From positions 19,662-83,661 of the forward strand of contig CAMBUO010000002.1 of the NCBI GenBank assembly GCA_945871105.1: a stretch of DNA of 64,000 nt, read 5' to 3'. Shown piece after piece: positions 7,739 through 30,280 of the stretch. Positions within the stretch are counted from its first letter, which is position 1, and every line of letters begins with the position of its first letter. The translations under genes and the position numbers were made by a program. This DNA is from an uncultured Clostridia bacterium (GTDB lineage: Bacteria; Bacillota_I; Bacilli_A; RF39; UBA660). Below the pieces are notes generated by a model. It had not been told where the DNA came from, searched no databases, and saw only the letters and a list, made by a program, of their open reading frames with translations.

Positions 7739-8311
7739 TTAATCATTTTCTAAAACTTGTTTAGAATCAATATTAATACTAATATTTTCTACCATGTTTT
7801 GATATTCATAAGTATCATATCCTGTTGGATAGTATATATATAATTGATAAATATCCGTTTCATCACTTGTATAACCAAATTCATATTCAGCAGTTTCTAT
7901 ATTTCTTAAATACATTCCATCACTATCCTGATTAATAGTTTCACCTAAAGATACATTATTTAATTCAGTTCCGTCTTGCTTATAAAGTTCATAAGTAAAT
8001 GGTAAATTAGTTGTTGTTGTTATTTTAATCTTATATCTAGCCATAGTTTCTAATCTTTTTTCATCCTTAAAATTAGAAACAGAAAAAGTATAAATATATG
8101 GTTCAGTACTAGGACCTATATCCCTCATGACTAAATTTTCTGTTTGCATACTAGAAGATATAATATAAAAAGCAATATCAACATTAGCATTACTACTAGC
8201 AATTGATTGGTATCTTGCTAAAGCATTAGGAACAATCAACAATACTAAAAATAAAAAAGAAAAAGCAATAATAATTTTAAATGATATTTTAAGTCTTCTC
8301 TTTGAAAACAT
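7739..8311 (-). CDS. Secreted TasA/camelysin-like small protein with SipW-type signal peptide (module A, last gene)
   Basis: Start refined to MFSKRRLK, with a GAGGT SD upstream. The signal anchor ends in ...NALARYQSIASS. About 190 aa and beta-rich. Directly downstream of a SipW-type peptidase gene. Confidence 0.55.
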   Translation of the reverse strand: MFSKRRLKISFKIIIAFSFLFLVLLIVPNALARYQSIASSNANVDIAFYIISSSMQTENLVMRDIGPSTEPYIYTFSVSNFKDEKRLETMARYKIKITTTTNLPFTYELYKQDGTELNNVSLGETINQDSDGMYLRNIETAEYEFGYTSDETDIYQLYIYYPTGYDTYEYQNMVENISINIDSKQVLEND

Positions 8312-8318
8312 CTTTACC

Positions 8319-9197
8319 TCATTTCTTTTTTTGTTGATTAAAAGCAAAAACATATTCACAAGTTGCATCTAAATCAATTTTTTTCTTTGTTTTTGATTTT
8401 ACTTCTTCAACTGTTTTATTATTTAAATTATCTACTAAACTATTTCTACGTTTTTTCTCTTCTAATTTATTTTTAATAACTTTTTCTTCTTCTTCTAAAC
8501 TCTTTAAATTTAAAAATAATTCAGCTGTTTCCCCTAAATCAATTTCTTTTTTTGTCTGTTTATCTAATTGAATATTAGAAATTAAATTTTCTATGTCCTT
8601 ATTATTATTTCTTCCTTCTTGAACAATTTTAACCTCAAGATTATCATCATCTTTCACATTTATTTTTCTAAATAAATTTATTTTTTTAGATTTACTATTC
8701 TTTACTTCACTTGGAACATAAGAAAAACATAAACTAAAAAGAAATAAAGTTATAAAAACTGATACAAAAACTTTAGGCGTTAATAAAATGTCCCCAAGCA
8801 ATCCAAAACTAGGTATTTTACATACTAATTTCCCAACAATTTTCGATGTATCAATTGGATTATCTTCCGTATTATTATAATCACCTTTAGTAACAAAAGT
8901 TTCTTTATTGTTTGATATTACTCGATGGGTTATAAATTCATTTTCTTCACTATAGGTAATTATATCTCCTACTTTAACATCATCAGTAATTTTAACAATT
9001 ATTATATCGTTTACATTTAAAGTTGGCTGCATACTACCTGTAGCAACTGAAAATAAGGTATAGCCAAAAATATCAACATATGGTTTTTTTAAAACTTTTA
9101 ATTGCATAAATCCAGCTATGCAAAAAACAATAACAACTAGTGAAAATACTAAAAAAACATTAACAATAATTTGTACTATTTTTTCTAATTTTTTCAT
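8319..9197 (-). CDS. sipW: SipW-type (ER/archaeal-type) signal peptidase I with a long C-terminal extension
   Basis: N-terminal TM helix, catalytic Ser box VATGSMQPTLNVNDIIIVK, His box FITHRV, and KGDYNNTEDNP. A second TM helix is followed by a ~130-aa Lys/Glu-rich tail. Confidence 0.8.
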   Translation of the reverse strand: MKKLEKIVQIIVNVFLVFSLVVIVFCIAGFMQLKVLKKPYVDIFGYTLFSVATGSMQPTLNVNDIIIVKITDDVKVGDIITYSEENEFITHRVISNNKETFVTKGDYNNTEDNPIDTSKIVGKLVCKIPSFGLLGDILLTPKVFVSVFITLFLFSLCFSYVPSEVKNSKSKKINLFRKINVKDDDNLEVKIVQEGRNNNKDIENLISNIQLDKQTKKEIDLGETAELFLNLKSLEEEEKVIKNKLEEKKRRNSLVDNLNNKTVEEVKSKTKKKIDLDATCEYVFAFNQQKKK

Positions 9198-9209
9198 CTA
9201 ATCACCACA

Positions 9210-9818
9210 CTATCCTTCAAATTCTGTTATTTCTTCTCCTAAATATTGAGTAACTGTAAGAGTAACAGGTATATCTAATTTATTGTTATAAATTGATCCT
9301 AATTGAGAATCTTCTTCATTATTTTCTTCAATATTATTCCAGACAACATTTACCCGAATATTATTTTTTTTCCCCTCTTTTATTTCACTTAAAGTTAAAA
9401 CATTTGTATATGTATTAAGATTAGTCTTAATTAAATTAGCTCCCGTTGTTTCTTGAATACTTAAAACATTAATACTATTTGATAAAGATGAAAAATCAAA
9501 ACTTATATCATAACGAATAGAAACATCAGTATCAGTTGGATCAATTTCAATATCAAAGTACCCTGTTGTCCCTGGTGCTAATTTATTATCTTTAGTATAG
9601 GTGTTTTCATCTACTTTAATCTTATCAACTAAAAAATTAGTTGTTTCTCCTGATAAAGACGTATTATTAACATTTATATTCCATTTAGCTGTATTCAAAT
9701 CATTAACAACCGATATATTTGTTTCTAATAAAGCATAAGTATCATAAATAGAATAAATTGTATAAAGTATAGCCAAAGAAAAAACTAATATAAGTAAAGT
9801 TTTAATCTTACTTCTCAT
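9210..9818 (-). CDS. Secreted TasA/camelysin-like protein with SipW-type signal peptide
   Basis: Signal anchor then DTYALLETNISVVNDLNTAKWNINVNN. C-terminal alternating strand LDIPVTLTVTQ. Paralogous to 22135-22707 (ARWRILVNN ... LDVNLHFVQ). Overlaps the upstream gene by 11 nt. Confidence 0.6.
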   Translation of the reverse strand: MRSKIKTLLILVFSLAILYTIYSIYDTYALLETNISVVNDLNTAKWNINVNNTSLSGETTNFLVDKIKVDENTYTKDNKLAPGTTGYFDIEIDPTDTDVSIRYDISFDFSSLSNSINVLSIQETTGANLIKTNLNTYTNVLTLSEIKEGKKNNIRVNVVWNNIEENNEEDSQLGSIYNNKLDIPVTLTVTQYLGEEITEFEG

Positions 9819-10341
9819 CTAATGGCCTTTTCATTTCAACAATAACAGCATAAATTTGATAAATAAATAATATTAAAATTGGAAAAATAATAACAAATAA
9901 AAATCCCCATTTTGATTCTAATATGCTTAAAATTTTACCAACACCAGGATAAGTTTTACTAGTTTCCATTTTTCCTACAACATATTGACTAGAAACTGGT
10001 AAATCTCCTTCCATAATATATGTATATTCACTATCATTAATTCTTTGCACACCAACAACTTTACCTAAATTAACAGAAACCTTATTTTGATAGGCGTTAT
10101 AAAAAAATATTTTATCTCCATTATAAATATCTTCATTATTATTTTTATAAACAACAACTAAGTCATTTTTCTTATAATCAGGTTCTAAATCATTATCAGA
10201 TACTATTATCAAAGAATTTTTACCTAATTCTGTTATATTATAATCATTATAATTTAATAAACAAACGGTTAAAAAGATAGCTACAGCCATATAAACAGCT
10301 ATTACTATTACTCCTAAAATTTTTACTACTTTCTTCATCAT
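9808..10341 (-). CDS. Catalytically degenerate SipW-like pseudo-peptidase (bitopic membrane protein)
   Basis: Same N-TM / beta-core / C-TM layout as SipW. The Ser box reads VSDNDLEPDYKKNDLVVV, against VLSGSMEPEFNTGDLILV as I recall B. subtilis SipW, so the nucleophile Ser is Asp. The His box reads VGVQRI (His to Gln). The exact start is uncertain (10338, 10341 or 10365). Confidence 0.6.
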   Translation of the reverse strand: MMKKVVKILGVIVIAVYMAVAIFLTVCLLNYNDYNITELGKNSLIIVSDNDLEPDYKKNDLVVVYKNNNEDIYNGDKIFFYNAYQNKVSVNLGKVVGVQRINDSEYTYIMEGDLPVSSQYVVGKMETSKTYPGVGKILSILESKWGFLFVIIFPILILFIYQIYAVIVEMKRPLDEK

Positions 10342-10396
10342 ACCACCAATTGAAGTATACCACATCAAGTATCAAGATGCAATAACTTTTCCTTTC

Positions 10397-11923
10397 CTAT
10401 TTTTTTATTTTTTCATATTCTAATAAATAATTAATATTATCAAGATTTATTTTTTCAGAAATTGGATAATACATTAAAATAATCAGCGCATTTTGTAATA
10501 AATTATCCAAATTATTTTTTACATCATCTCTATTTAAATTAAGACCAAGTAAATTATATTTATCAATTATAATATAATCTAAATCCTTATCATCAAGAAA
10601 TCTTATATGATTTATCATGGTAAACCTTGTCTCTCTAATAAAACGAGTAAATTTCTCAATTTCTAAATTAATAGCATCTATTTCTAAAGATTCATCTTGA
10701 CTTTTAAACATTTTAAGTAAATAATTATAACTTTCCAGACATAAATTAAACATATCAAATAAAGTTGAATTTTCATCCAAATTAAGAAATTTTTCTAAGA
10801 ATAAATTATCTTCATATTCTAGATATAACTTCTCTAATTCTTCAGTTATTTCTAAAGAAGAAGTAACTAAAGTATTAATTTTCGTTTTATTAATTGTTTT
10901 TTTCTTTAACAAATAATTAATTTTACGATTAATTTTAAATAAATTATTTTGTTTTTTATTTAATTCTTTATATTTACTATTACTAATATTTTTATACTTA
11001 TCTTTATCTTGATATAATTTTTTCATATCATCAATTAAAAAATGATATTTTAAGTATCCCTGATATTCATTTAAAGATCTATATAATTTAAGAATAACAT
11101 CTCTTAAATAATTTATATCATCATCAGTTAAATCTTTATTTATAAATATTTTAAAAATTTTAATTATTTCTTCTTTGGTATAATTTTTAGAATTTATTTC
11201 TCCCGTTAAAAATTTATTTAATAAAACTTTTTCATCTTGAAGATAGAAATCAAAATATTTTTCGTTTAAATTAAAATAATGATTATATATTTCTTTTGGT
11301 GTTTGCTTATCTAAAAATTGATTTTTTAATTCATTATAATAATTTTGAAATTTTTTAATATTTTTATAATATAAATATTTAAAATTTAAACTTATTTGTT
11401 TAAATAAAGTTGGTGATTTAAAATAAATATCTTCAAAACAAAGTCTTAACTTTTCAGCATTACTATTTTCAAAAAATTGTTTCATATAAATAGAAACATA
11501 ATAAGTATAACAAAAATCGTTGGCAGTTAAAATAATTCCAATTTCTAAAAACTTATCAATTATTTTTTTTATAATTTTATTAACTTCATCAAGATCATTA
11601 TCAAAAAAAACTAATAATTGATAAAGTAATTGGGATAATCCACTTTTTTCATAAGGACTACTATCATCTAACAAATATAAATTATTATAAGCTTCTTCTT
11701 TTTCTTTTTGAATATTATCTAATTCTTTGTTTTCTTCATAACTTTGATATTTATTAAAACGTGAATCCATTTCTTTAATTATATCTTGTAGTGTAGTTTG
11801 ATAATCATTTTGTAATTCTAAAATTTTTTCTAAAACTTTTTTCGCATTTTTAACATTATTTCTTGGTAAATTAGTAATTAATTCTTTATTTACCTCAATA
11901 TCTTCTTGAATCTTATTTATCAT
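10397..11923 (-). CDS. Hypothetical cytoplasmic helical protein (508 aa)
   Basis: Long ORF with AGGTGA SD 5 nt upstream of the ATG at 11923. No TM helix or signal peptide. Lys/Glu/Asn/Tyr-rich helical composition. No recognisable motif. Confidence 0.6.
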   Translation of the reverse strand: MINKIQEDIEVNKELITNLPRNNVKNAKKVLEKILELQNDYQTTLQDIIKEMDSRFNKYQSYEENKELDNIQKEKEEAYNNLYLLDDSSPYEKSGLSQLLYQLLVFFDNDLDEVNKIIKKIIDKFLEIGIILTANDFCYTYYVSIYMKQFFENSNAEKLRLCFEDIYFKSPTLFKQISLNFKYLYYKNIKKFQNYYNELKNQFLDKQTPKEIYNHYFNLNEKYFDFYLQDEKVLLNKFLTGEINSKNYTKEEIIKIFKIFINKDLTDDDINYLRDVILKLYRSLNEYQGYLKYHFLIDDMKKLYQDKDKYKNISNSKYKELNKKQNNLFKINRKINYLLKKKTINKTKINTLVTSSLEITEELEKLYLEYEDNLFLEKFLNLDENSTLFDMFNLCLESYNYLLKMFKSQDESLEIDAINLEIEKFTRFIRETRFTMINHIRFLDDKDLDYIIIDKYNLLGLNLNRDDVKNNLDNLLQNALIILMYYPISEKINLDNINYLLEYEKIKK

Positions 11924-12041
11924 CTTCTTCACCTATTTTTTCTATATTTTTTTGTTCAGTTTCTAAATATTTCAAAAAATCATTAATTGTTTTATATAAA
12001 TCCAAGAGTTCTTGATTAGAAATATTATTTAAATCTTGCAT
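11913..12041 (-). CDS. Small (42 aa) acidic ORF, hypothetical
   Basis: Own translation: MQDLNNISNQELLDLYKTINDFLKYLETEQKNIEKIGEEDDK. AGAGGTG SD upstream. Its stop overlaps the next gene's start by 11 nt. Too short for the ORF track. Confidence 0.4.
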   Translation of the reverse strand: MQDLNNISNQELLDLYKTINDFLKYLETEQKNIEKIGEEDDK

Positions 12042-12059
12042 ACTCACACCTCTACTTTA

Positions 12060-12088
12060 ATTATAGATTATATTAAAAAAAAAGTCTA
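12060..12088 (-). promoter_or_regulatory. Putative sigma-A promoter for the 12041->7739 operon
   Basis: On the minus strand: TAGACT, 17-nt spacer, TATAAT. The spacer contains a T8 run that, together with the last T of the -35 hexamer, forms a continuous T9 tract (A9 on the plus strand, 12075-12083). About 15 nt upstream of the SD. Confidence 0.4.
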
Positions 12089-12210
12089 GTTATTAGAATT
12101 ACTATTTACGTTTTTTTAAGTTAATCATAATAACTATAAATGGTAAAGTAAAAATTTATAATTAATTTTAAACTATTTTTGAATTATAAAATTTAAACTT
12201 TAAATAATAA

Positions 12211-12235
12211 AATAGAGATTTTAATCATCTCTATT
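12211..12235 (-). terminator. Hairpin terminator overlapping the stop codon of the giant gene
   Basis: Stem AATAGAGAT / ATCTCTATT with a 7-nt loop, followed on the minus strand by a T-rich tract. Confidence 0.5.
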
Positions 12236-15200
12236 TTATAATTAAATATTGATAAACACTTCCTACATAAGTATCTTTATCATAAAGTAATATTTCTAGT
12301 TTATAAGTACCAGACTTTAAATTATCTTTTTGATATAAGAAATAGTTAACTTCCGATACAGGGTTTTTATCCAAATAATATTCATTTTCATTTATTTTTA
12401 CTAAATTATTACTAAAATAATTAGCTAAATCAACTTCTTCATAACTAGTTGAATAAATACTATCATATAATCGTCTATATAATTTTATTCTTAAATTTGG
12501 ATTTTCTAAACCTGATTCATATTTTACATTTAAATTTAAAGTAGAACTATCTAGTAAATTTTTACCAGTTGTTTTATCAATAAAGAAAGCTTTTTCATTA
12601 ATAGTCATTTTTAGACCATATAAAGTATCCATAACATGTAAATTTAAATTCAAGGTATCACTTGATTCTAGTCCATAATAGATACCATCTGGAGAACCAA
12701 ATGATTCGATTACAATTTTATAATTACCTCCAGCTAAATTACTATTTTTAGCATTTACTTTAATCTTGGTTGAAACATTTGCAACACGAGGGGCTATATT
12801 AATTCTTGTTGTTCCATCATAACGTGGATAATAAGTTATATCATTATAGGTATAAGAAATACCCATTAAACTAGAACCGGTTAATAAATTATTATTTTCA
12901 TCATAGATAGATATTTTTAAACCTAATTTTAAATCATAATAATTAGTATCATAAATAGTATTACTACCGATTGTTTGTTGAATAAAATTCGTGCTTAAAT
13001 TTAAATTTAAATCATTTCCATTATAAAATTCTAAAGTATCTATATCACTTGTTAAATCAATAACAGCATGTTTATCATAATACAAGTTATAAGTCATAGT
13101 TTCTTGTTGAATACCTAAAACAGAGATTAAAGTTTGATTACCTTGATTTCTTAATTCAAGTAATAGTCTTTTATCTGTTACATCTTCTTGAATATTACTT
13201 TCTTTAAAATCAACAATAAAGATAAATTCTTCTTCGGCTGTTTTAGCTTCTGCATCATAGTAGGAATTATTAGCCGAGGCATCATCATAGTTATTGGTAC
13301 TAGTAACACTTCCCATTTTAATAAATTTACTTAACTCATAGGATACTTCATTATGAATTTGATATTCTTGTAAAGATGCTTCATAATCAGTTTGATTTAC
13401 AACATAGTAATAGTATACTGGTAAACTTGGGTTAACATAGTCAATCATCGTAATTTTTGTGTTAACTGGCAAGACATAACTTGAAGTTAAAACGCGATGA
13501 TAACCTTCTTTATAAGGATTAGTATTTTTTTCCATATATAAAGAATAATAAGCACTAAAACTTGAATCATTTGTAATATTAACTGGAGATGAAGCGAACA
13601 TTTTATATTGTTTTCCAGGTGTCATAGAAGCTTCGTATTCATCAGTTGTATATAAAGCTCTGGAAATTTCAACATTAAAGTTAATTCTTTCAACTTCATT
13701 AGTTAATTCATCAATTGGCGTAATTGCTACTAAAGAAATAGTAACACTTCCCATTTGACCTGCGGATTGTAAATTCTTAGAGTGATATAAATAGAAAACA
13801 AAACTTCGAATAGCATTAGTATTTTCACTTTCATAAGTAGTTGTACCTAAAATAGGATTAGTTTCATTTGATGCAAATTCGGTTTCGCCAACCGTAATCC
13901 AACCAGTTGGTCCAGTTTTAATAGCAAGGCCCATAACATTGTCGGCATCACTTGGATTTTCAGCAATTCTTGGTATATCACTTGAAGGAACTAAACTAAC
14001 ACCATCAGCTAAATTAGCATAGTTAAAACCTAAAATTGAAAATTTGGTATTAGCATTTGAAAAGTTTAAGAAACTGAATTCTTCAATACCTAAAGTAGAA
14101 TATTTTGAGGCAGTTAAATGAACATCATAGGAAATAACTTGCTCACCAATAACCCACATATAAAAGTCAGAATCAGCTGGAGTCGGTTCGATATATTTAA
14201 CATCTAATAAACTAGTATTTTCTTCGTTGGCAAAGTTAGAATAGAACCCATCAACTTCAATATTATGATTAGTCATGTGGGATCCTAAAACATAACTCCC
14301 TGAGGTAAAGTAATATAAATCCCCACTGGCTGGAGTATCTCCGTAGTCATATTTAGCATCATATAAAGCTGTAATAGGATTTTTATTTTGATCACGTAAA
14401 TACATTCCAAAGAAAGTCATTCCGGAAACGTCACCATATAAAGTAACCGCTTGATTTCTAGCAATATTAAAGTTTTTGCCCTCTAGCATATATAAACGAT
14501 TATTAACATTCTTAGTAACTGTTTTTGTTTCATCATTAATTTCTACACTGGCTTTAACTTCACTTCCATCTATATCAACTAAACTAGAGAATTTTTTAAC
14601 TAAGTTAGCACCTGTATCTAGATATAAACTCGAATTATTTTTTAATTTTAATTCATCAATTCGGCTTAAAGTAAATAAGACATCAGAAAATTCATTAGTT
14701 CTATCGGTTGCCCCACTTAAGATAATATGAGAATTACTAATTGAAAACATATCAGCTCTTTGCAAAGAAATATTTTTTTGAATATTAGTAGCTGTTCCAT
14801 AATTACTTATGTAAACATTACTATAACCTTGAGTCATCGAAGCATTTCCGGAACCAAAGATAGATCCCTTTATCGTAAATGTATTGTGATTTAAACCATC
14901 TATATTAATAGTTATTCCCTTGGTAACACTGATGAAACTAAAGTCGATTACTTCAGAACCTTCTTCGTTAGCTTCTCCTCCACCAAAGACTGTTCCACCA
15001 ATAGTAATATCACCTTTAATTAAGGTATTATCGGTAACAACATTAGAACCAATATTTAAAGTTGTAATTCCATATAAAACAGAAGTATTAGCACCACCAT
15101 AAACATTACCAGAAATATTAGCACCAGCAATATTTACTAAACTTTTAGAATTATTTACTTCACTTGTTCCGGTTGGAGCTGCATTTCCTCCACCAAAGAC

Positions 15201-20234: not shown

Positions 20235-20277
20235 TATTACTACCAACTTTCTTTCTAATTTTAATACTTTCTTTATA

Positions 20278-21982: not shown

Positions 21983-22087
21983 ATCTTCTCCTTACTATAA
22001 TTCTATCATAGGTAATAATTATCTTCAATTAGTTTTAAAAAAATAATCTAAATAAGTGTCAAGTGTTAAAAAAATATTTTTCTTTTA

Positions 22088-22116
22088 TTGTTTACAACTA
22101 ACCTTTATGCTATAAT
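22088..22116 (+). promoter_or_regulatory. Putative sigma-A promoter with extended -10
   Basis: TTGTTT, 17-nt spacer, (TGc)TATAAT, located 19 nt upstream of the ATG at 22135. GGTGG SD in between. Confidence 0.5.
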
Positions 22117-22134
22117 TTTTATAGTAGGTGGATT

Positions 22135-22707
22135 ATGAAAAAGAAAATAATTATGGTATTAGCATTTACTTCTTTATTAATATCCTTTTGTTTTATAGGA
22201 GAATCATATGCTAAATATGTTACAACCATAGATAATGTTGCGTCGATGTCGGTTGCTAGATGGCGAATTTTAGTTAATAACAAAGATATTTTAAATGAAA
22301 GTGAAGCTAGGCAAATAATTACTCCTGTTTTTTATGAAAATGAACATATTAATGCAAATGTTATAGCTCCTACTAGTAAAGGATATTTTGATTTAATTTT
22401 AGATGCAACCGGAGCTGATGTTTCTTTTAATTATACAATTTCAACTTCTTTAAATGCTGATAGTGCTGTTTCAGATTTAAAAATAACTGGTTATACCTTA
22501 AATGAAGGTGAAGTTATAGCTATAACTGACGGTACTTTAATTACTGGTCAAATTTTATATACTGATAATAAGATTCATAATTTAAGAGTTTTTATTGAAT
22601 GGAGTGATACAGAAACAGATACAATGGATAATCAAGCTGATACCAATGCTAGAAATAAGCTTGCAAAATTAGATGTTAATTTACACTTTGTTCAAATTGC
22701 TAATTGA
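22135..22707 (+). CDS. Secreted TasA/camelysin-like protein with SipW-type signal peptide (only plus-strand gene of the cluster)
   Basis: Signal peptide ends in ...GESYAKYVTTID, then ARWRILVNN. C-terminal strand LDVNLHFVQIAN. Paralogue of 9210-9818. Confidence 0.6.
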   Translation: MKKKIIMVLAFTSLLISFCFIGESYAKYVTTIDNVASMSVARWRILVNNKDILNESEARQIITPVFYENEHINANVIAPTSKGYFDLILDATGADVSFNYTISTSLNADSAVSDLKITGYTLNEGEVIAITDGTLITGQILYTDNKIHNLRVFIEWSDTETDTMDNQADTNARNKLAKLDVNLHFVQIAN

Positions 22708-22729
22708 TTAGTTAAACTAATCTTTTTTT
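22706..22729 (+). terminator. Rho-independent terminator
   Basis: GATTAG-ttaaa-CTAATC followed by T7, overlapping the stop codon. Confidence 0.55.
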
Positions 22730-22732
22730 ATA

Positions 22733-22762
22733 AAAAGATTCAAATGAAAATTGAATCTTTTT
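22733..22762 (-). terminator. Hairpin terminator for module B (A/T flanked, could act in both directions)
   Basis: AAGATTCAA-atgaaaa-TTGAATCTT flanked by an A-run and a T-run, 3 nt downstream of the stop of the 22765-23388 gene. Confidence 0.55.
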
Positions 22763-22764
22763 AC

Positions 22765-23388
22765 TTAATTATTAGCTTGAATAGCTGTAACTTTAATAAC
22801 TAAAGTTATACTTTTACTATCTGGATTATTCTCGTGATAGATATAAGCTTTATGACCCCATTCAGTATCCAATTCATCATTACCTGACTCATAAGGCCAA
22901 ACTAAACTAAAATTAATTTGAGCAGTTCCACCATTTGCTACCATGTTACCATTTTCAATTGTTACTTTTAGTTTAAATGGATAATCATTTTCAATTTTTC
23001 TAGTAAGTTCATCGCTAGTTAAAGTATCAGAAACGACAAATTCTTCCCCTAAAATTGAAGCACTTACTATTTCATAACTTAAAGTAGCTGGAGTATCACT
23101 ATTATTAGTAGCTTTAATAGTTTGAAAAGAATCAGTCATACCTGGATAAACTGATTCAACATCAAAAGTTAAGGTTTCCTCAATATTATTATCACCAACG
23201 ATAAAATTAACATTCCATGACCTGACATGAGCTGTAATATTATTAGAAACTTTCGTAGCATAAATAAACCAAGCAAAAGAATTGCAAGACATTAAAATAG
23301 CTAAGAACAAAAGATTTCTTAATTTAATTCTTTTAAATAATTTTTGAAAGAAAATCCAAATATAAGACAATTTATTTTTTGGTTTCAA
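22765..23388 (-). CDS. Secreted TasA/camelysin-like protein with SipW-type signal peptide (module B, last gene)
   Basis: Signal anchor ends in ...SCNSFAWFIYATKV, then RSWNVNFIVGDNN. C-terminal strand ITLVIKVTAIQANN. Confidence 0.6.
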   Translation of the reverse strand: MKPKNKLSYIWIFFQKLFKRIKLRNLLFLAILMSCNSFAWFIYATKVSNNITAHVRSWNVNFIVGDNNIEETLTFDVESVYPGMTDSFQTIKATNNSDTPATLSYEIVSASILGEEFVVSDTLTSDELTRKIENDYPFKLKVTIENGNMVANGGTAQINFSLVWPYESGNDELDTEWGHKAYIYHENNPDSKSITLVIKVTAIQANN

Positions 23389-23412
23389 AAAATCACCCCT
23401 TTTTATAAAATA

Positions 23413-24060
23413 TTATTTCTTTTTTGGTATTGGTTCATCATCACATAGTATTTTTTTTTCTTTGGTATCTTCTTTTTTTTCTTTAGCTTCTTTTATTAAT
23501 TTTTTTTCTTTCATAATATCATTTATTTCAAAAAATAAAAGAATTGCAAAAGGAACAAAAATGATAAAATAAAACCCATAAGCATTATTTACAACATGAC
23601 TTAATAAACTAAGTAGAGTACTTTTTTTTAAAACTTTTCCTAAAATTTGATCATATTCTATTTCAGGATCTTCTACTTCATTAGCTAAACCTTTAGTTTG
23701 AAAAATATACTTACCATTTTTATATTCTTTTTTTATAACTTGGTGAGTAACAATTTTACCATTTAAATTAGACTCTTCACCTAAATAAACAACATCATCG
23801 CCAATTTTTATATCTTCTGCAACAACTTTTTTTGCAATTACCATATCTCTTATTTCATACTTTGGCACCATACTTTCACTGACAATAGTAAACATACTAT
23901 AACCAAATAAAGTTACTTTATTATCTGAAACCCTTTGAATAAAAATAATGGAAATAACAATTATTATTAAAGTAGATGTAATTGCTTTTAAACCAACAGC
24001 TATACCCTTAAATACTTTATTATTTATTATTTTTTCTATTCTTTTCACTTTAATCACCAC
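23413..24060 (-). CDS. sipW: SipW-type (ER/archaeal-type) signal peptidase I
   Basis: TM helix, Ser box FTIVSESMVPKYEIRDMVIAKK, His box IVTHQV, TKGLANEVEDPE, C-terminal TM helix and a short Lys/Glu tail. GTG start; the exact start is ambiguous (24060 or 24048). Overlaps the stop of the upstream gene. Confidence 0.75.
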   Translation of the reverse strand: MVIKVKRIEKIINNKVFKGIAVGLKAITSTLIIIVISIIFIQRVSDNKVTLFGYSMFTIVSESMVPKYEIRDMVIAKKVVAEDIKIGDDVVYLGEESNLNGKIVTHQVIKKEYKNGKYIFQTKGLANEVEDPEIEYDQILGKVLKKSTLLSLLSHVVNNAYGFYFIIFVPFAILLFFEINDIMKEKKLIKEAKEKKEDTKEKKILCDDEPIPKKK

Positions 24061-25178
24061 TACAATTTTATACTTCGAATTAAATTCAAGTATTCATCCA
24101 TATTCTTTTTAAATATTTTATATATTTCTTTATCATTAACAACTGTTTTATATTTAACAATACTATATTGTTTAGAGACAATATCTTTTAACTCTTCTTC
24201 TTTTAAATTACCTCCACTTAAATCCATAATTTTGGAAACCATATTAGAAACAATTTTTTCTGTTATCTCTTTTTTATCAGTTGTTTTTTCTTCATTACTT
24301 AAGGTATCTAAAACTAAATAATTTAAAAGAAAAGATTCATCCATGTATTTTTTTAAAGTACCAGTATCGTTATAATCTTTAGAATCATGACTTTTCTTAA
24401 TACCATCATCCATATTTTCTTGCATATAATTCCATAGCTTAACTGCATATTGAAAGTTAACATTTTTTAAAATAACATTAGTTTTTTTAATAGGAGAAGT
24501 TACTAGAGCAATATGTAATTTATGAATATCTTGATATACTTGCGAACAAGTTAAATCAGATATTTGTAATTCTAATCTTTCTATTCTTTTTAAAACATCT
24601 AAACCAGCTTCATTTTTATTAGCATTTTTTTCTTCTCTTTTACTATCTAACATAAGTTGTAGATTAACATGCTCAGATCCCATTTTACAATTTGCTGTAT
24701 AATTTATGCTTTTATTATCTTTTAAACTTGATTCAGTTATTAAATTTCTTTTTTTACGAGCTATATAAAATTTCATATTTTGAATTAAACTATAAATAAA
24801 ACGATTTTCATAAGTATTATAACTTTCTTCTTTATTTATATTTAATATTTTTGAAGGTTTAACATCTCCTGTTTTTTTATTATAATCTTGGATTAAATTA
24901 GTATTTCTTGATAAATGTTTAATACTTTCAACTGTAACTCTTCTAGCTAATTCTATTTTTACAACATCTTCTTCATTGACAATAAAACGATTCGGATTTC
25001 TTAAAATATTATCAATATAACGAATAGTATCTTCCATAATATCTAACCATTCATAGTTGCATTCAACTTTATCGTATTTACTAGTTACGTGTACATTTGA
25101 ATCTATTTTATTACTAAAAGAATCAATTGTTTTGCTGTTAGTTTGTTGATATAAATCAAATATTGTTAAATCATCCAT
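24060..25178 (-). CDS. McrC N-terminal/DUF2357-like protein with no recognisable nuclease domain
   Basis: 372 aa and cytoplasmic. The YNTYENRFIYSLIQNM motif resembles the conserved block of DUF2357/McrC-like partners of McrB ATPases. I found no PD-(D/E)xK-like D...(D/E)xK block in the C-terminal half. Confidence 0.45.
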   Translation of the reverse strand: MDDLTIFDLYQQTNSKTIDSFSNKIDSNVHVTSKYDKVECNYEWLDIMEDTIRYIDNILRNPNRFIVNEEDVVKIELARRVTVESIKHLSRNTNLIQDYNKKTGDVKPSKILNINKEESYNTYENRFIYSLIQNMKFYIARKKRNLITESSLKDNKSINYTANCKMGSEHVNLQLMLDSKREEKNANKNEAGLDVLKRIERLELQISDLTCSQVYQDIHKLHIALVTSPIKKTNVILKNVNFQYAVKLWNYMQENMDDGIKKSHDSKDYNDTGTLKKYMDESFLLNYLVLDTLSNEEKTTDKKEITEKIVSNMVSKIMDLSGGNLKEEELKDIVSKQYSIVKYKTVVNDKEIYKIFKKNMDEYLNLIRSIKL

Positions 25179-25190
25179 ATTTATCCCTTT

Positions 25191-26717
25191 CTATGTTAAT
25201 TTCTTAAGTCTTAGTAAGTATTCTTCACATTCTTTCATTTTTCCTTTTCCAAATAACTTATCTAAGAATTCAATATAACCATCTATTTCATCACGAATAT
25301 AGGAAATATTTAATTGTTCAAATTTTCTTAAGACTTTTCTAGCTAAGAAATAATCGACGCCATCAACTTCATCACCACCACAGGCAACATAAATAGGAAC
25401 AAATTTTTTCATATGCATAACAATACGGTTACCAAAGGCAATTCTAAAGTGTTTAATAACATAATTATCCATTTCTTCTATTTTATTTAAAACGTCTTCA
25501 GACATAGGATGTTCTTTAAAAGCTTCTTGAAATAATTTATCAAGATAAGAATAGTTAATATCTTGAGCTTCGGTTTCTATTGGTTCAAAGACTTGACCTT
25601 TATCGTTGATATCAATAGGCATAGCTCTATCGTATACTTTATCGGTTACCATGAAAGTTGAATCATCGTTATTGATAGTTCCAATATACCAAACATTAGG
25701 TGGTATTTTTATTTTACCTTCGATAATATGTTTAGGATCGTTTTTCCAAGAAGAAGATACAAGTTCAACAATCCATTCATCTTTATTAGGCATTTCAAGA
25801 ATTGATAACATTTCAGCAAAGTAATACTCAACACGAGAAATGTTCATTTCATCTAAAATAATAGTATAAACATCATCGGTATAACCAGCTAAATATAACT
25901 CTTTTAATACTTCCGTTTCATTAAATTTCTTTGTAAATTCATTAAAATAACCAAATAATTCGGTACGATCTCTCCACGATGGTTGAACAGAAGCAACACA
26001 AGAATCATGCTTTAAAAATTTTCCCCAAGCATAAGCAAGTGAAGTTTTACCAGTACCAGAAATACCTTGTAAAATAACCAGTTTTGTTGAAGCTAAAGCC
26101 GAGATAAATATTCTTATCATTTCTGTTTTATAATAAAGATGTAATTTACTAGCAGCAAAGTTTCTAAATAATTCTACTAATTCAGCCAAAGTAAAATTAT
26201 TATTATAGTTTTGAATTTTATAGTTTTTATAAGCTTCATCAATACTTGTAAGTTTAGAAAATCTTGAATCACTAGTATCAACTTTTTCTTCTTGTTCACC
26301 ACTTGCTTCTTCTACATCTTCTTCTCCTGGTTTAAGTCCTAAATGAGAAACTTTCATAGCTAAAATATCTTGCTTTTCTTTCATTAAATTAGCAACTTCT
26401 TGATTTAAAGTAGAAACTTCTTCTAATAAAGATTCTTGTTCGACTAAAGTCTTACGAAAACGTATATATTTTCTGATAATAAAATACCCTAAGAAAATAA
26501 TACCGGCTAGAACTAATACAATCAAAAGAATTGCTAAAGCAACAAACACCCATTCAGCTCCATTAAAATCATCTTTATAGAAATTAACAATAGAAATGTA
26601 TTCAGATACATTAAACATCTTTGTAATTCCTATAAATAAAGCTTTAAAAACATCAATTAAAGGTGAAAAAAATTGTAATAAAAATTCATATATAAATCTA
26701 AAAAATGTATCCATCAT
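25191..26717 (-). CDS. Membrane-anchored McrB-family AAA+ (AAA_5) NTPase
   Basis: N-terminal ~85 aa contain hydrophobic helices (FSPLIDVFKALFIGI; WVFVALAILLIVLVLAGIIFLGYFII), followed by a coiled coil and an acidic linker. The AAA+ core has Walker A LQGISGTGKTS, Walker B TIILDEMN, and WYIGTINNDDS...VYDRAMPI, as in McrB-type GTPases. Confidence 0.7.
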   Translation of the reverse strand: MMDTFFRFIYEFLLQFFSPLIDVFKALFIGITKMFNVSEYISIVNFYKDDFNGAEWVFVALAILLIVLVLAGIIFLGYFIIRKYIRFRKTLVEQESLLEEVSTLNQEVANLMKEKQDILAMKVSHLGLKPGEEDVEEASGEQEEKVDTSDSRFSKLTSIDEAYKNYKIQNYNNNFTLAELVELFRNFAASKLHLYYKTEMIRIFISALASTKLVILQGISGTGKTSLAYAWGKFLKHDSCVASVQPSWRDRTELFGYFNEFTKKFNETEVLKELYLAGYTDDVYTIILDEMNISRVEYYFAEMLSILEMPNKDEWIVELVSSSWKNDPKHIIEGKIKIPPNVWYIGTINNDDSTFMVTDKVYDRAMPIDINDKGQVFEPIETEAQDINYSYLDKLFQEAFKEHPMSEDVLNKIEEMDNYVIKHFRIAFGNRIVMHMKKFVPIYVACGGDEVDGVDYFLARKVLRKFEQLNISYIRDEIDGYIEFLDKLFGKGKMKECEEYLLRLKKLT

Positions 26718-27235
26718 TTACTCCTTAACAAAACATTACAATTCAAAGAATTATAATAAGTAAATAATTCTTGATTAGTAACTAATATAGCATCAAATAA
26801 TTCAAATCTTTTAATTTCTATATCATCAAATTCATATTTATCTTGAAAACAGATAACAAAATGAAAACCATCTTGAATTAAATCAATAATGTAATCTTTA
26901 TATTCTAAATAAAGATTATAATCAAATTCAATTAAAAACCTATCTTTTAAAATATCATTATCAATTAAATTTAAAAAACGTTTATTCTTATCTTCTTTAC
27001 TTAATAAAGTTATAGGATAAGTAACAATATATTTATTTTTAAAATCATAATTAATAAGACCATTTAAAACTTTTAAAGTAATTAAATTATAAAGAATAAA
27101 CATCTTCTGTTCATTAATAACTTCTGAGTTATAAACTCTTTTAATAGCAAAATTACTATAAATACTTGGAAAATTTATATTATATTCTAAAGTAGTATAA
27201 TAAATTTTATTATTAAGTTTTTCATATTTAACCAT
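26714..27235 (-). CDS. Hypothetical cytoplasmic protein (173 aa)
   Basis: ORF whose stop overlaps the start of the McrB-like gene by 4 nt. No SD before the ATG, and the frame stays open 40 codons upstream. No reliable domain call. Confidence 0.45.
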   Translation of the reverse strand: MVKYEKLNNKIYYTTLEYNINFPSIYSNFAIKRVYNSEVINEQKMFILYNLITLKVLNGLINYDFKNKYIVTYPITLLSKEDKNKRFLNLIDNDILKDRFLIEFDYNLYLEYKDYIIDLIQDGFHFVICFQDKYEFDDIEIKRFELFDAILVTNQELFTYYNSLNCNVLLRSK

Positions 27236-27321
27236 GAATTTATTAGTTTTAAAACTTTTTAAATAATTAATTCTTCTTTTTTTATTATCATGAACTAAAG
27301 TAATTAATTCTTCTTTAGTAT

Positions 27322-27657
27322 CTAGTTCTTTGTTATATAACTTATAATATATATTTCATCTTGAATATTATCAAGAATTAAAATATTATAAACTAAATTA
27401 TTTAATAACTTAAATTGTTTTTGATCATATTTAGAAAAACTAATAAATTCTTTTAAATTATTTTTTAAATTATTATTAATTGATTGTTTAATTTGTAAAT
27501 TATTTTCATTATAATAGTTATAATATCTAATCTCATGATATTTTTTTATAATAACTTGGATATCTTTGATTTTTAACTTATTTTTAAAGATTAATTTAAA
27601 ATATTTTGTTAAAGTTTTGGAAGAAAAATCAAGATATTTTTCAATTATATTATTCAT
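27322..27657 (-). CDS. Hypothetical cytoplasmic protein (111 aa)
   Basis: ORF starting 8 nt after the stop of 27666-28574, with GGAGG SD. Lys/Asn-rich. No domain recognised. Confidence 0.45.
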   Translation of the reverse strand: MNNIIEKYLDFSSKTLTKYFKLIFKNKLKIKDIQVIIKKYHEIRYYNYYNENNLQIKQSINNNLKNNLKEFISFSKYDQKQFKLLNNLVYNILILDNIQDEIYIISYITKN

Positions 27658-27665
27658 GGAACCTC

Positions 27666-28574
27666 CTAACTTTGGAATGTTATAATCGATGTTGGATTAG
27701 TAATTGGATAAGTATAATTTTGACTAGTATCTACTTTATAAAATTTTACTACTTCACTGGATATAGCATCTATTTTAAAAGTAATACTATTAACGTATTG
27801 ATAATTATTAATAGTTGTTAATGTTTCATTTGTCTTTTTTAAATAAGCAGGACTAGTCATATCAAGAGCAACAATAGTTGGATCAAAAGTTAAAGTAATT
27901 AGAGCCGACGTACATTTATTTTTTTGCTCGTCTGTTAAAGTTAGATAAGTATCTACATTTATTTTATCTCCTACTTGATAAGTATCAAAAGCTTCATCAA
28001 CTAAATAATAATCTAAAGTATTAGTTATATTAAAATTTAAATAAGGACTACCTACTTCATCATCAATTGCATAAGATAAGCCACTATAACCTACATTTAA
28101 TATAAAACGAGCACTTATTTCTTTTTTATAAGGACTAGTTGATTTAGCTTTAACTTCTAAAAAAGCACTATCACCTTCAGATAAAGTTCCATTAGGAGTA
28201 ATTACAGCTTGAAATGAATCATGATTAGTTGAAGATAAAACTGTACCAGAAGACTTAGATAATTGACATGTAACATTACTAGAACATACATAAGTTAATT
28301 CATAAGCAATATCATATGGACAAGTTTCATAATTATTTAAATAACTATTTAAATCTATTAGAATGCTATATTCTGAAACTGCTGACCAGTTCTCAATTTG
28401 ATAAATTGGCCTGTTAAGATCTAATTTATCACTATTAAAATAAAACTTTTTGGTTAATAAATAACGCTCATTAATAGCATTATAAATATATCTACCATAA
28501 GTAACGCCAATTAAAAGAAAAGTTAAAGAAATAGAAATAATAATAGGAACAATAATTTTTTTATTTTTTTTCAT
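27666..28574 (-). CDS. Secreted beta-rich protein with SipW-type signal peptide (302 aa)
   Basis: Signal anchor IIVPIIISISLTFLLIGVTYGRYIYNAI. Overlaps the upstream pseudo-peptidase gene by 14 nt, the same coupling seen in module A. Confidence 0.6.
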   Translation of the reverse strand: MKKNKKIIVPIIISISLTFLLIGVTYGRYIYNAINERYLLTKKFYFNSDKLDLNRPIYQIENWSAVSEYSILIDLNSYLNNYETCPYDIAYELTYVCSSNVTCQLSKSSGTVLSSTNHDSFQAVITPNGTLSEGDSAFLEVKAKSTSPYKKEISARFILNVGYSGLSYAIDDEVGSPYLNFNITNTLDYYLVDEAFDTYQVGDKINVDTYLTLTDEQKNKCTSALITLTFDPTIVALDMTSPAYLKKTNETLTTINNYQYVNSITFKIDAISSEVVKFYKVDTSQNYTYPITNPTSIITFQS

Positions 28575-29073
28575 GTTTCTTTTTCCTAACTTCCGTAATA
28601 AATAAATATAATTCTAAGATAAATAATATTAAAATAGGTAAAATAATTAAAAATAAGTATCCCCATTTAGAAGTTAAAACACTAATAATTCCACCTAGAA
28701 AAGCAATACTTTTTACATCTTTTTGATTACCAATAACATAGTTATCTAAAATATGATAACTAGAACTACCTACAATAAAAGTTTTAGGATTATCAATAAT
28801 ATCAGCTACTTTATTACTTTCTATTACAATATCACTGGAATAAGTATTATAATAAATTATTTTATCCCCTACTTTTATGTTATCAATATTTTTTTTAACA
28901 ATTAATAAACTATTCCTTGAATAACCTGATAAATCAGTTTTTTTAGGAACTAATAAAGTATTATTACCAATAACGGTTACTCCATAATCATTATAATTAA
29001 TCAATAAAATTGTAATTGGAATTGTAATTATTACATAAAATACAATCAAAATATTAACTATCATTCTCTTCAT
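28561..29073 (-). CDS. Catalytically degenerate SipW-like pseudo-peptidase (paralogue of 9808-10341)
   Basis: N-TM and C-TM layout. NYNDYG and SKWGYLFLIILPILILF are shared with 9808-10341. The Ser-box position reads VPKKTDLSGYSRNSLLIV (no GSMxP), and the His box is absent (KVADIID). Confidence 0.6.
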   Translation of the reverse strand: MKRMIVNILIVFYVIITIPITILLINYNDYGVTVIGNNTLLVPKKTDLSGYSRNSLLIVKKNIDNIKVGDKIIYYNTYSSDIVIESNKVADIIDNPKTFIVGSSSYHILDNYVIGNQKDVKSIAFLGGIISVLTSKWGYLFLIILPILILFILELYLFITEVRKKKHEKK

Positions 29074-29137
29074 ACTACCACCATTATAAGTATAACATAG
29101 GAAATATTTAAAGTAAATAAATGATATCTAATAATGT

Positions 29138-29164
29138 AAAAAAAAAGATGTTTTTTGACATCTT
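29138..29164 (-). terminator. Rho-independent terminator after the 29177-30223 gene
   Basis: On the minus strand: AAGATGT-caaaaa-ACATCTT followed by T9. Confidence 0.6.
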
Positions 29165-29176
29165 TTAATGACTTGT

Positions 29177-30223
29177 CTAAGGAGTTGGAAGAGTTGTTGT
29201 GAATTGAAGATCGTAATTAATATTTCCACCAGAAGCAGTATTTTCACAATCAACATCTTGACCTTCTACCCACATATAAATTCTTACTTTAGTTACTCCA
29301 GCTGTTAAACCAAATATTTGAGTATAATCAGCATTTGCAGCCTTAGTTTTATAAGTAGAAGTTACAGCTTTAAATTTTTCACTATGTTGAGTAGCATTAG
29401 CTTCTCCTACTTTAACGGTATCAACATCTATTGGAGCTAGTATACCATCGTAATCAACACGTGCAGCATCAGGACCTTCAGTAATAGTTAATGTATAAGT
29501 ATCACGTGCATGACTAATTGCATTTTTTGTATGAACATCATAGTTTGGTTCCCATAAATATACAGGAGATGAAGCAGCACCAGTTGTTCCCAAAGCTTGA
29601 ATTTTATCAACGGTATCATCAAGTGTTGTATTCCCTAACATAACAAAGGCAACACGACTAGCATTTTTAATACCTGTATCATTGGCATCAGCAGTAACAG
29701 CTGAACTTGGAGTCATATATAAATTTGTTGATGTATCAGATTTAACAAATAAATCAAAAGCAATAAATTTACCATCCGTTCCATTAGTTTCAGTAGACTT
29801 AGTAGCACTTAAATACCAATCACCGGTAGCATTAGCAGCAACTTGTCCATAGAACATTTCCATAAGACCATCATTTCCTACAGTTAAAGCAGATGAAACC
29901 GGTTCCAAAGAACTTGGCAATTGATTTTTAGCTCCAGTATATTTACCAGATGCAGTTTTAATATCAGTTGTTTGAATAATTGATTTCCAATTAGTACCAT
30001 CTACTGAAACTTGAATACCATTTTGAGCAGCAATATTAACAGTAATTGTATTAACTGCTACTGTTTGATTTGATGTAAACCATGCATAGGTTGATGTTGT
30101 TAACATAATACCTGTTCCAAATAACAATAGTAATAGGAACATTAAATGTCTTTTTCTTTTTTTCTTATTTTTTTCAATAACTAAAGTAATTTCATCACGA
30201 TCTTTGTTTTCATTTTCTTTCAT
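29177..30223 (-). CDS. Secreted protein with SipW-type signal peptide (AWFTSN family); apparently monocistronic, candidate major subunit
   Basis: Start refined to MKENENK, with AGAGGTG SD. The signal ends in TTSTYAWFTSNQ. C-terminus VRIYMWVEGQDVDCENTASGGNINYDLQFTT. Has its own promoter and terminator. Richer in Ala/Gly/Thr than its neighbours. Confidence 0.7.
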   Translation of the reverse strand: MKENENKDRDEITLVIEKNKKKRKRHLMFLLLLLFGTGIMLTTSTYAWFTSNQTVAVNTITVNIAAQNGIQVSVDGTNWKSIIQTTDIKTASGKYTGAKNQLPSSLEPVSSALTVGNDGLMEMFYGQVAANATGDWYLSATKSTETNGTDGKFIAFDLFVKSDTSTNLYMTPSSAVTADANDTGIKNASRVAFVMLGNTTLDDTVDKIQALGTTGAASSPVYLWEPNYDVHTKNAISHARDTYTLTITEGPDAARVDYDGILAPIDVDTVKVGEANATQHSEKFKAVTSTYKTKAANADYTQIFGLTAGVTKVRIYMWVEGQDVDCENTASGGNINYDLQFTTTLPTP

Positions 30224-30251
30224 TTTAAACACCTCTCTTATTTTCAATTTA

Positions 30252-30280
30252 ATAATAGCATAAAAAAAAAATGCTTTCAA
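30252..30280 (-). promoter_or_regulatory. Putative sigma-A promoter of 29177-30223 with a T10 tract in the spacer
   Basis: On the minus strand: TTGAAA, 17-nt spacer (gcaT10atgc), TATTAT. The final tgc of the spacer gives an extended -10 (TGnTATTAT). Confidence 0.5.

Follow-up and report, generated by a model that had tools for sequence, protein, structure and literature searches.

The window analysed here is a stretch of 64,000 nucleotides (nt) from an uncultured Clostridia bacterium (contig CAMBUO010000002.1, positions 19,662 to 83,661). It carries a 22.5-kb cluster of 18 genes (7739-30334) that encode predicted signal peptidases of the SipW type, degenerate relatives of these peptidases, exported proteins of several families and a cytoplasmic nucleoside triphosphatase (NTPase) module (Table 1). 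Seventeen of the genes lie on the minus strand and only M lies on the plus strand; following transcription, the order is B9, B8, B7, B5/B6, B4, B3, B2, B1, M (opposite strand), A9, A8, A7, A6, A5, A4, A3, A2, A1. A first-pass annotation of the same DNA had described about 19 consecutive genes here. Every open reading frame (ORF) that it listed exists at its coordinates and is conserved as a protein in related loci, and two of the ORFs are halves of one gene, B5. Using BLASTP, tblastn, hhalign and hmmsearch, profile searches of Pfam, NCBIfam, PADLOC and the PDB, and Foldseek against the PDB, we recognized a curated family for only 4 of the 18 proteins, namely the two peptidases, the DUF2357 protein B3 and the McrB-type ATPase B4. 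AlphaFold2 (AF2) structure models are monomers of two proteins only, M and the AWFTSN-type protein A8.

Table 1 Genes of the cluster, in order of position. TM, transmembrane; ER, endoplasmic reticulum; aa, amino acids.
Gene	Coordinates	Strand	Description
A1	7739-8368	-	Small exported beta-rich protein; junction ALARYQS; likely true start Met20 at 8311
A2	8319-9197	-	Predicted catalytic SipW-type signal peptidase I; TIGR02228 76.6 bits; Peptidase_S24 24.7 bits; Lys/Glu-rich C-terminal tail
A3	9210-9818	-	Small exported beta-rich protein; junction DTYALLET; M paralogue
A4	9808-10368	-	Predicted non-catalytic SipW paralogue; TIGR02228 only 25 bits; overlaps A3 start by 11 nt
A5	10397-11932	-	Conserved cytoplasmic helical protein, ~510 aa; no TM segment
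A6	11913-12047	-	Small acidic helical cytoplasmic peptide, 42-44 aa
A7	12231-20246	-	Giant N-terminally anchored beta-solenoid protein, 2,667-2,671 aa; TM 26-44
A8	20278-21267	-	AWFTSN-type exported protein, 329 aa; invariant YAWF..N and WxEGQDxDCE
A9	21260-21982	-	N-terminally anchored protein, 240 aa; TM 24-42; no junction motif; C-terminal W-EG-D-DC element
M	22135-22707	+	Small exported beta-sandwich protein; junction ESYAKYV; all-beta after the signal helix in the AF2 model
B1	22765-23388	-	Small exported beta-rich protein; junction NSFAWFIYA
B2	23413-24060	-	Predicted catalytic SipW-type (archaeal/ER-type) signal peptidase I; TIGR02228 74 bits
B3	24060-25178	-	DUF2357 (McrC N-terminal-like) protein, 372 aa; PF09823 50.7 bits versus cut-off 23.3
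B4	25191-26717	-	Membrane-tethered McrB-type AAA+ NTPase; N-terminal hydrophobic hairpin, coiled coil, cytoplasmic AAA+ domain
B5/B6	26714-27657	-	One cytoplasmic gene, ~320 aa, frameshifted in a ATATATAT run near 27352
B7	27666-28574	-	Exported protein, 302 aa; junction GVTYGRYIYN; conserved in 47 loci
B8	28561-29073	-	Predicted non-catalytic SipW paralogue; TM segments 5-23 and 141-159; overlaps B7 start by 14 nt
B9	29177-30226	-	AWFTSN-type exported protein, ~350 aa from ORF Met37; junction TSTYAWFTSN conserved

Conservation and circular gene order of the cluster

In a scan of one genome per species, we found at least 538 encoding loci, and 83 related loci (L001-L083) were fetched for synteny; all adjacency counts refer to these 83. 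The carriers are described from the best 80 of the at least 538 loci. All 80 come from metagenome-assembled genomes (MAGs), sampled from human, pig, chicken, goat and deer guts, and their record titles name uncultured Bacilli, 'Tenericutes', Mycoplasmatota, Erysipelotrichaceae, Firmicutes CAG:884/CAG:321 and Clostridium sp. CAG:914/CAG:628/CAG:451, with a few bin names that are evidently mislabelled. The host may belong to orders of the RF39/RFN20 type. Across loci, the identity of the anchor protein ranges from 41 to 77%. The first-pass annotation had named the absence of a conserved neighbourhood in related genomes as a reason to give up its reading of the region, and we find the gene set to be strongly conserved across the 83 loci. 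The most frequent adjacencies on the A side, in the direction of transcription, are A9 to A8 (59 loci), M to A9 (58), A7 to A5 (56) and A8 to A7 (53). On the other side, each pair in the run B7, B5, B4, B3, B2, B1 is adjacent in 44-48 loci (48 for B2 to B1), and B1 is followed by M in 43. The adjacency of A2 and A1 was found in 16 loci.

The clusters of related genomes are cyclic rotations of one circular order, which runs from B9 through B8..B1, M and A9..A1 back to B9. Four rotations occur, with break points at A1|B9, B9|B8, B1|M and M|A9; gene orientation is kept in all of them and the flanking genes vary. Such a pattern would be expected if genes had been lost after a tandem duplication, or if the cluster had passed through a circular intermediate. 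It also bears on the idea that the region consists of two tandem paralogous modules, A and B. The paralogous pairs are borne out by BLASTP and hhalign, but the modules are neither simple duplicates nor natural units, since B9 comes after A1 in 17 loci and before B8 in just 5.

Several neighbouring genes overlap, by 20 nt (A6/A5), 14 nt (B8/B7), 11 nt (A4/A3), 8 nt (A9/A8), 4 nt (B5/B4) and 1 nt (B3/B2), a layout that suggests operon-style or translational coupling. B9 had been credited with its own promoter and terminator. A promoter-like site does lie upstream of it (30280-30252, beyond the terminator of hsp20 at 30336-30316), it is followed by an AT-rich hairpin with a T-run (29166-29138), and B9 looks like a separate transcription unit. 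Promoter-like matches in this AT-rich DNA are no commoner than in shuffled sequence, so that the operon boundaries rest on the gene overlaps and a few hairpins. The window as a whole is very AT-rich, with about 18-33% G+C per 2-kb block. The stretches that hold the giant gene A7 and B9 (12001-20000 and 28001-30000) reach a G+C fraction of 0.27-0.32, compared with 0.18-0.25 in their neighbours, probably through a Gly/Thr codon effect of the beta-solenoid repeats and not through foreign origin. The cluster is flanked by housekeeping genes, an Hsp20-type gene and htpG on one side and mutM/fpg and a recD2-like helicase gene on the other. We ruled out an origin from a mobile element on the basis of these flanks and of a tblastn search with the AWFTSN protein, which gave no match in 72,556 plasmids or 50,697 phage records. 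Hmmsearch with 12 family hidden Markov models (HMMs) found no further paralogues in the window outside 7739-30334.

Signal peptidases, degenerate paralogues and exported proteins

The two SipW-type peptidases and their degenerate copies, recognized in the first-pass annotation, hold up in profile searches and family alignments. Judged by their sequences, A2 and B2 are true SipW-type (archaeal/ER-type) signal peptidases, with predicted activity: both score above the curated TIGR02228 cut-off of 51.85 bits, and the catalytic Ser/His/Asp are kept in 15/15 members of the A2 family and 48/48 members of the B2 family. The two proteins are related to each other at an hhalign probability of 99.6%. Neither reaches the 190-bit cut-off of the Bacillus SipW equivalog NF046067 (A2, 62 bits; B2, 61.7 bits), and by this NCBI criterion they are SipW-like in type and not orthologues of Bacillus SipW. 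A2 differs from B2 in a tail of about 125 Lys/Glu-rich residues (~165-292) beyond the second TM helix. In B. subtilis, SipW is reported to have a second, regulatory role that depends on its tail.

A4 and B8 form a pair of their own (hhalign probability 100%) and are homologous to the active type, aligning with B2 at 98.5% (A4) and 97.4% (B8); no TIGR02228 match was found for B8. The catalytic His is kept in 0/52 A4-family and 0/16 B8-family members, and the Ser is gone in nearly all of them, while both proteins retain the two terminal TM helices. Because catalytic residues have been lost across whole families while homology and both helices are kept, the alignments place A4 and B8 as conserved pseudo-peptidases, not decaying copies. 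Our literature search on inactive SipW paralogues returned nothing usable.

Nine products, A1, A3, A7, A8, A9, M, B1, B7 and B9, carry one hydrophobic segment each, at the N-terminus. A motif that closes this segment, [ST][YF][AGS]-x-[FY]-x-[ST], shows the strongest conservation of any N-terminal feature in seven families and is seen in variants such as SYA|WFT.N, TYA|KYL, SFA|WFIY, TYG|RYIY, SYG|LFET and TYS|RFQS. It is missing from A9 and weak in the giant A7, which makes the earlier figure of at least ten anchored products with such a junction slightly generous: nine are anchored, and the motif belongs to seven families. The junction fits the -3/-1 signal-peptidase rule, with small residues at -3 and -1, and it also resembles the TasA site TWA|AFND, where cleavage is borne out by the mature N-terminus in PDB 8AUR. 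The motif resembles the SipW-dependent signal class, to which it had been assigned, in shape only. Against the corresponding model, TIGR04088 (cut-off 19 bits), a single one of 55 AWFTSN members gave a match, below the cut-off, and none of 44 A3/M-family members did; B9 itself scores 14.5 bits.

The small exported proteins form a loose family by hhalign. A3 and M are aligned at 99.9% and A3 and B1 at 89% over 158 columns, followed by A1/M at 85%, A1/A3 at 78% and a weak link between A1 and B7 at 58%. Conservation of A1 begins near Met20. For the A3/M family, we collected 2,886 homologues (clusters), with no annotation among the 120 listed, and its profile found nothing in the PDB; B7 has no match in Pfam or NCBIfam. 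The AF2 model of M is a beta-sandwich (predicted local distance difference test (pLDDT) 72.7). Its Foldseek matches are generic jelly rolls (a Cry11 domain, phiX174 capsid proteins, the EphA7 ligand-binding domain and carbohydrate-binding modules) with template-modelling scores of 0.25-0.31, global scores that are lowered by the signal helix left attached in the run. Ena3A stands at rank 35, and the 50 matches listed include neither TasA nor any other member of the broad TasA superfamily (thread, AbpA, AbpX, CanA, Tafi). Both AF2 models, of M and of the AWFTSN protein, are beta-rich past the signal helix, with low confidence in the stretch right after the junction.

A8 and B9 share 44% identity (BLASTP; hhalign 100%) and belong to an AWFTSN family of 1,092 members, counted as clusters at 90% identity. 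Among the 120 AWFTSN homologues listed, there is no Pfam domain and 'hypothetical protein' is the only source name. The model of A8 has a pLDDT of 85.4 and a predicted template-modelling score of 0.83. It has no PDB match at E<0.001 in Foldseek, and its top match, the Sulfolobus thread subunit 7pnb, is weak (E=0.025, probability 0.69, template-modelling scores 0.24/0.38, again with the signal helix attached). The C-terminus of A9, with its W-EG-D-DC element, matches the C-terminus of A8/B9 at an hhalign probability of 92%. On sequence features and the fixed gene order, A8 and B9 are the best candidates for a repeating, major subunit, and A9 is a candidate membrane anchor or base. Papers on CanA and AbpX describe assembly that depends on Ca2+, and by analogy the acidic loop W-EG-D-D-C-E-N, which is invariant, may be a cation site.

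The giant protein A7 had been described as a beta-helix from its sequence, and we agree that it is a predicted beta-solenoid, because 30 [VIL][YF]GG[GSN] motifs are spaced at a period of about 25 residues. It has no match in Pfam, NCBIfam or the PDB sequences, and it is a candidate adhesin.

The McrB/DUF2357 module and other cytoplasmic proteins

The B-side genes that the first-pass annotation had listed as a four-gene cassette are three genes, B3, B4 and the frameshifted B5. The two B5/B6 halves, ORFs 27322-27657 and 26714-27235, are both covered, in two frames, by an intact homologue from L005 (tblastn), and homologues of 314-338 aa are intact in 47 related loci. The break in the window may reflect an error of assembly, a pseudogene or phase variation by slippage. 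B5 has no Pfam match in 29 members and no PDB match, and we dropped on these grounds a guess from its sequence that it is a degenerate EAL domain.

The nature of this cassette had been missed. From its profile matches and its position, it is a McrB-like NTPase with a DUF2357 partner, integral to the cluster. The AAA+ core of B4 (residues 200-366) matches E. coli McrB (6hz4) at E=3.7e-4, and in PADLOC the protein matches the defence-candidate ATPase PDC-M26A at 116.6 bits. All of the 48 members keep the Walker A, Walker B and GTINNDDS/YDR motifs without change, and a TM segment spans residues 57-75. With a mean column identity of 72%, B3 exceeds all other aligned families in conservation. Its 1,438 representative homologues come in a short form of ~370 aa and a long form of 500-1,100 aa, and DUF2357 is the only domain recognized in the long one. 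We found no nuclease domain in B3 with Pfam, NCBIfam, PADLOC or PDB profiles, which a divergent nuclease could escape, and its profile gave no match to PDB sequences. The NTPase genes B3-B5 are assigned to the cluster as an integral part because they lie inside it in every locus that covers this stretch. A literature search on DUF2357 and McrB at membranes returned nothing usable.

Two further cytoplasmic genes follow the giant gene. A5 has 49 distinct homologues of comparable length in related loci and no match in Pfam or the PDB. The 42-aa ORF noted earlier proves to be a real conserved gene, A6: in nearly all of the loci inspected, the giant gene and A5 are separated by an ORF of 31-45 aa whose consensus reads ..EELSDxELLxLYKxLxxFIKYLE.., and it has also been called as a gene in L001 and L003.

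Relation to known fibre systems, proposed function and neighbouring genes

The small exported proteins had been called TasA-like, a label that was not an observation and that Pfam, NCBIfam, PDB profiles and hhalign all fail to bear out. No window protein matches PF12389 (TasA/camelysin, Peptidase_M73) at E<=0.1, and none of the 44 A3/M-family or 55 AWFTSN members, scanned individually, matches it at E<=1. DUF1102 and DUF5305 gave no match in the window proteins or in the same 44 and 55 family members. In hhalign, the probability was 0.3% against the TasA sequence alone and 0.1-5.1% for eight secreted families against a 111-sequence TasA/CalY profile, built from a homologue search in which all listed matches carry PF12389. 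The best local segments do align junction with junction and last strand with last strand, which we do not count as evidence. We rejected TasA/camelysin homology, with HMMs, PDB profiles, hhalign and Foldseek all negative or non-significant. It is plausible that the cluster works like TasA; that its subunits are members of the TasA family is not supported by the tests run.

The likeness lies in the organization of the locus. As in tapA-sipW-tasA of B. subtilis (PDB 8AUR, 5OF1), an ER/archaeal-type signal peptidase gene lies beside its presumed substrates, of more than one subunit type, whose hydrophobic leaders end in small-x-small followed by an aromatic residue (TWA|AFND in TasA) and which have a C-terminal beta-strand together with an acidic loop and a final strand that ends in Q. 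In contrast to that system, the cluster has 18 genes instead of 3, two peptidases plus two pseudo-peptidases, a giant beta-solenoid, and an NTPase module with three further cytoplasmic proteins, and there is no detectable homology. The organization had been thought undescribed, whereas comparable locus logic is published for Tafi and AbpX (PMC11821415; bioRxiv 10.64898/2026.01.04.697558); we found no paper that describes this cluster. In archaeal loci of the Tafi (tafA-G, from haloarchaea) and AbpX types, a dedicated type I signal peptidase (SPase I) is encoded alongside an accessory protein, minor subunits, tip and anchor (PMC11821415; PMC9245690; bioRxiv 10.64898/2026.01.04.697558), and these loci share with the cluster the logic of major plus minor or adapter subunits, tip, anchor, a dedicated SPase I of the TIGR02228 type and an accessory protein. 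Their peptidase-associated accessory membrane protein, DUF5305, has been likened to the eukaryotic SPase complex (PMC11821415; bioRxiv 10.64898/2026.01.04.697558), whereas the accessory here is a degenerate SipW paralogue, export is of the Sec type and not Tat, and the host is bacterial, from the gut Bacilli. The Tafi and AbpX loci also have no counterparts of the McrB-like NTPase, the DUF2357 protein, A5, A6 or B5. In gene content and conserved synteny, the cluster has the locus architecture of the broad TasA superfamily, with a pseudo-SipW in place of DUF5305.

The donor-strand filament protein of the thread is counted in this broad 'TasA superfamily', whose proteins can also form lattices (bioRxiv 10.64898/2026.01.04.697558). 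In the thread of Sulfolobus acidocaldarius (Saci_0406, PDB 7PNB), the subunit is processed by SPase I and has a donor strand at its N-terminus, and a paralogous, cap-like subunit is encoded in the locus (PMC9715654). No structure matches the AWFTSN model better than this subunit, but the match is weak and non-significant, the AWFTSN protein is almost twice as long, the sequences show no similarity and the gene neighbourhoods are unrelated. With McrBC (E. coli McrB, PDB 6HZ4/6UT6), the cluster shares a McrB-type AAA+ protein, a DUF2357 protein as in McrC-like partners and the adjacency of the two genes. It differs in that a membrane tether replaces the DNA-binding domain of McrB, B3 is short and has no recognizable PD-(D/E)xK nuclease, and the B4/B3 pair is fixed within a surface-protein cluster in 46 loci.

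At about even odds (a probability of roughly 0.5), we read the cluster as a dedicated apparatus that would export, process and mount a cell-surface fibre or adhesin in uncultured AT-rich gut Bacilli. Nine products would enter the membrane through Sec export, each by its one N-terminal hydrophobic segment. A2 and B2 probably cleave the seven families at the conserved junction, because the junction fits the -3/-1 rule, and would thereby expose an aromatic-rich N-terminal strand. A4 and B8, whose genes are translationally coupled to A3 (for A4) and B7 (for B8), would handle specific substrates; probably they hold these without cleaving them or act as partners of the active peptidase. From sequence features and the fixed gene order, A8/B9 would be the repeating subunit, assembled on the uncleaved anchor A9, with A1, A3, M, B1 and B7 as minor or adapter subunits and A7 as the adhesin. 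On the cytoplasmic side, B4, B3, B5, A5 and A6 may provide energy or control for export or assembly. Such a module would imply an energy-dependent or regulated step, and the TasA, Tafi and AbpX loci have no module of this kind. A bolder version, less likely than not but with a real chance in our view, is an undescribed class of NTP-driven surface appendages of Gram-positive bacteria. In it, a membrane-tethered McrB-type GTPase with a nuclease-less McrC-like partner, a restriction motor in a new role, would drive assembly or anchoring from the cytoplasm, and with peptidase/pseudo-peptidase heteromers that recall the eukaryotic signal peptidase complex, and new subunit folds, would make up a conserved, lifestyle-defining organelle of a large uncultured clade of gut Bacilli.

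The first-pass annotation had likewise proposed an elaborate fibre or adhesin apparatus. The peptidases, pseudo-peptidases, exported proteins with a shared junction and giant protein that it invoked are all present, and the TasA/camelysin relationship that it assumed is not supported. Several points weigh against the reading of a fibre or adhesin apparatus. Polymerization, cleavage and surface location are predictions, and the role given to the NTPase module is conjecture, with McrB/DUF2357 pairs normally found as restriction or defence systems. The junction motif could be a membrane-interface feature of uncleaved anchors, and the TIGR04088 scores stay under the cut-off. No subunit has significant sequence or fold similarity to TasA, AbpA, CanA or any other solved filament protein, and the model of M is of moderate confidence only.

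The affinities of the cytoplasmic genes raise the question of whether two unrelated systems stand side by side, a SipW-dependent secretion locus and an embedded McrBC-like anti-phage or restriction system (B3-B5) passed on together with it. This would account for the matches of B4 to McrB and to PDC-M26A, for the DUF2357 domain of B3 and for its relatives of 500-1,100 aa elsewhere. Yet the adjacency of B7, B5, B4, B3 and B2 persists in 44-48 loci and in all rotations, whereas defence islands are normally patchy; B3 has the strongest conservation of all the aligned families and shows no nuclease domain, B4 has a TM tether instead of a DNA-binding domain, and B5/B4 and B3/B2 overlap by 4 nt and 1 nt. 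We regard an embedded defence system as distinctly improbable. It is also unlikely that the locus is an island whose secreted or anchored products, such as adhesins and binding proteins, are processed by SipW but act individually, with no common structure. In favour of this reading, homology to filament proteins is not demonstrable and the Foldseek matches of M are beta-sandwiches like those of carbohydrate-binding modules or receptor-binding proteins, but gene order and composition are strict across divergent genomes, N- and C-terminal elements are shared between families, and the presence of conserved pseudo-peptidases and of cytoplasmic partners speaks for a machine of fixed stoichiometry.

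The products might instead build a two-dimensional coat, sheath or surface-layer (S-layer)-like layer that offsets the missing sortase-anchored surface proteins in reduced Bacilli. The cluster is very widespread in the clade and has many different beta-sandwich subunits, two related orders, RFN20 and ML615J-28, are reported to lack sortases (PMC10868615), and lattices of TasA-superfamily proteins are published. We nevertheless give this explanation a low chance: no S-layer or SLH domain was detected in the window proteins, a YkuD L,D-transpeptidase encoded in the window means that a wall is probably present, and a single giant adhesin-like gene together with an anchor-like gene fits a polar appendage better. 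An assembly system for the spore surface (coat, exosporium or appendage), suggested by the link of TasA and SipW to spores in Bacillus subtilis, seems very improbable. SipW-type peptidases are present, TasA is also annotated as spore coat-associated protein N and some related orders are predicted to sporulate (PMC10868615); on the other side, the cluster and its surroundings within the window, where the neighbours are htpG, hsp20, mutM and the recD2-like gene, showed no gene or signal of sporulation, no Ena or coat family was matched, and the clade includes lineages predicted to be non-sporulating (PMC10868615).

The carriers are reduced-genome, AT-rich Bacilli that are common in human and animal guts and known only from MAGs, and a cluster that keeps its order across at least dozens of species is likely central to their attachment or interactions. 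The overall logic, in which a dedicated ER-type SPase I accompanies several small beta-sandwich subunits, a tip and an anchor, was already known from TasA, Tafi and AbpX. What is new are the host clade, the pairing of active with inactive SipW paralogues, the McrB-like/DUF2357 module with its three further cytoplasmic proteins, and large subunit families that have no Pfam domain or informative name in the listed matches, including an AWFTSN fold with no significant match in the PDB. The analysis thus yields large unannotated families (AWFTSN, 1,092 clusters; A3/M, 2,886 clusters; B3-like, 1,438 representatives) and two mechanistic leads, the inactive SipW paralogues paired with active ones and a McrBC-derived NTPase apparently recruited from DNA restriction.

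Elsewhere in the window, a 153-aa ORF (33597-34058, minus strand) with an N-terminal hydrophobic segment and a beta-rich, Asn/Tyr-rich body superficially resembles the small proteins of the cluster; none of the 12 family HMMs detected it, and it has no match in Pfam or NCBIfam. The YkuD-type L,D-transpeptidase domain protein is encoded at 58399-59835 (minus strand), which suggests that the host has a peptidoglycan wall despite the 'Tenericutes' labels of related MAGs. Two further genes belong to a second, unrelated surface system. The product of one (49383-52820, minus strand) is 1,145 aa long and combines a prepilin methylation motif (N_methyl) at its N-terminus with an MBG domain; the other (61628-62953, minus strand) encodes a T2SSE-type secretion ATPase. 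The pair suggests a locus for a type IV pilus or pseudopilus that has a giant pilin-like adhesin. A hybrid sensor (HATPase_c plus response-regulator receiver; 53259-55058, minus strand), encoded between the genes for the pilin-like protein and for an AMP-binding enzyme, is a possible regulator of one of the surface systems.

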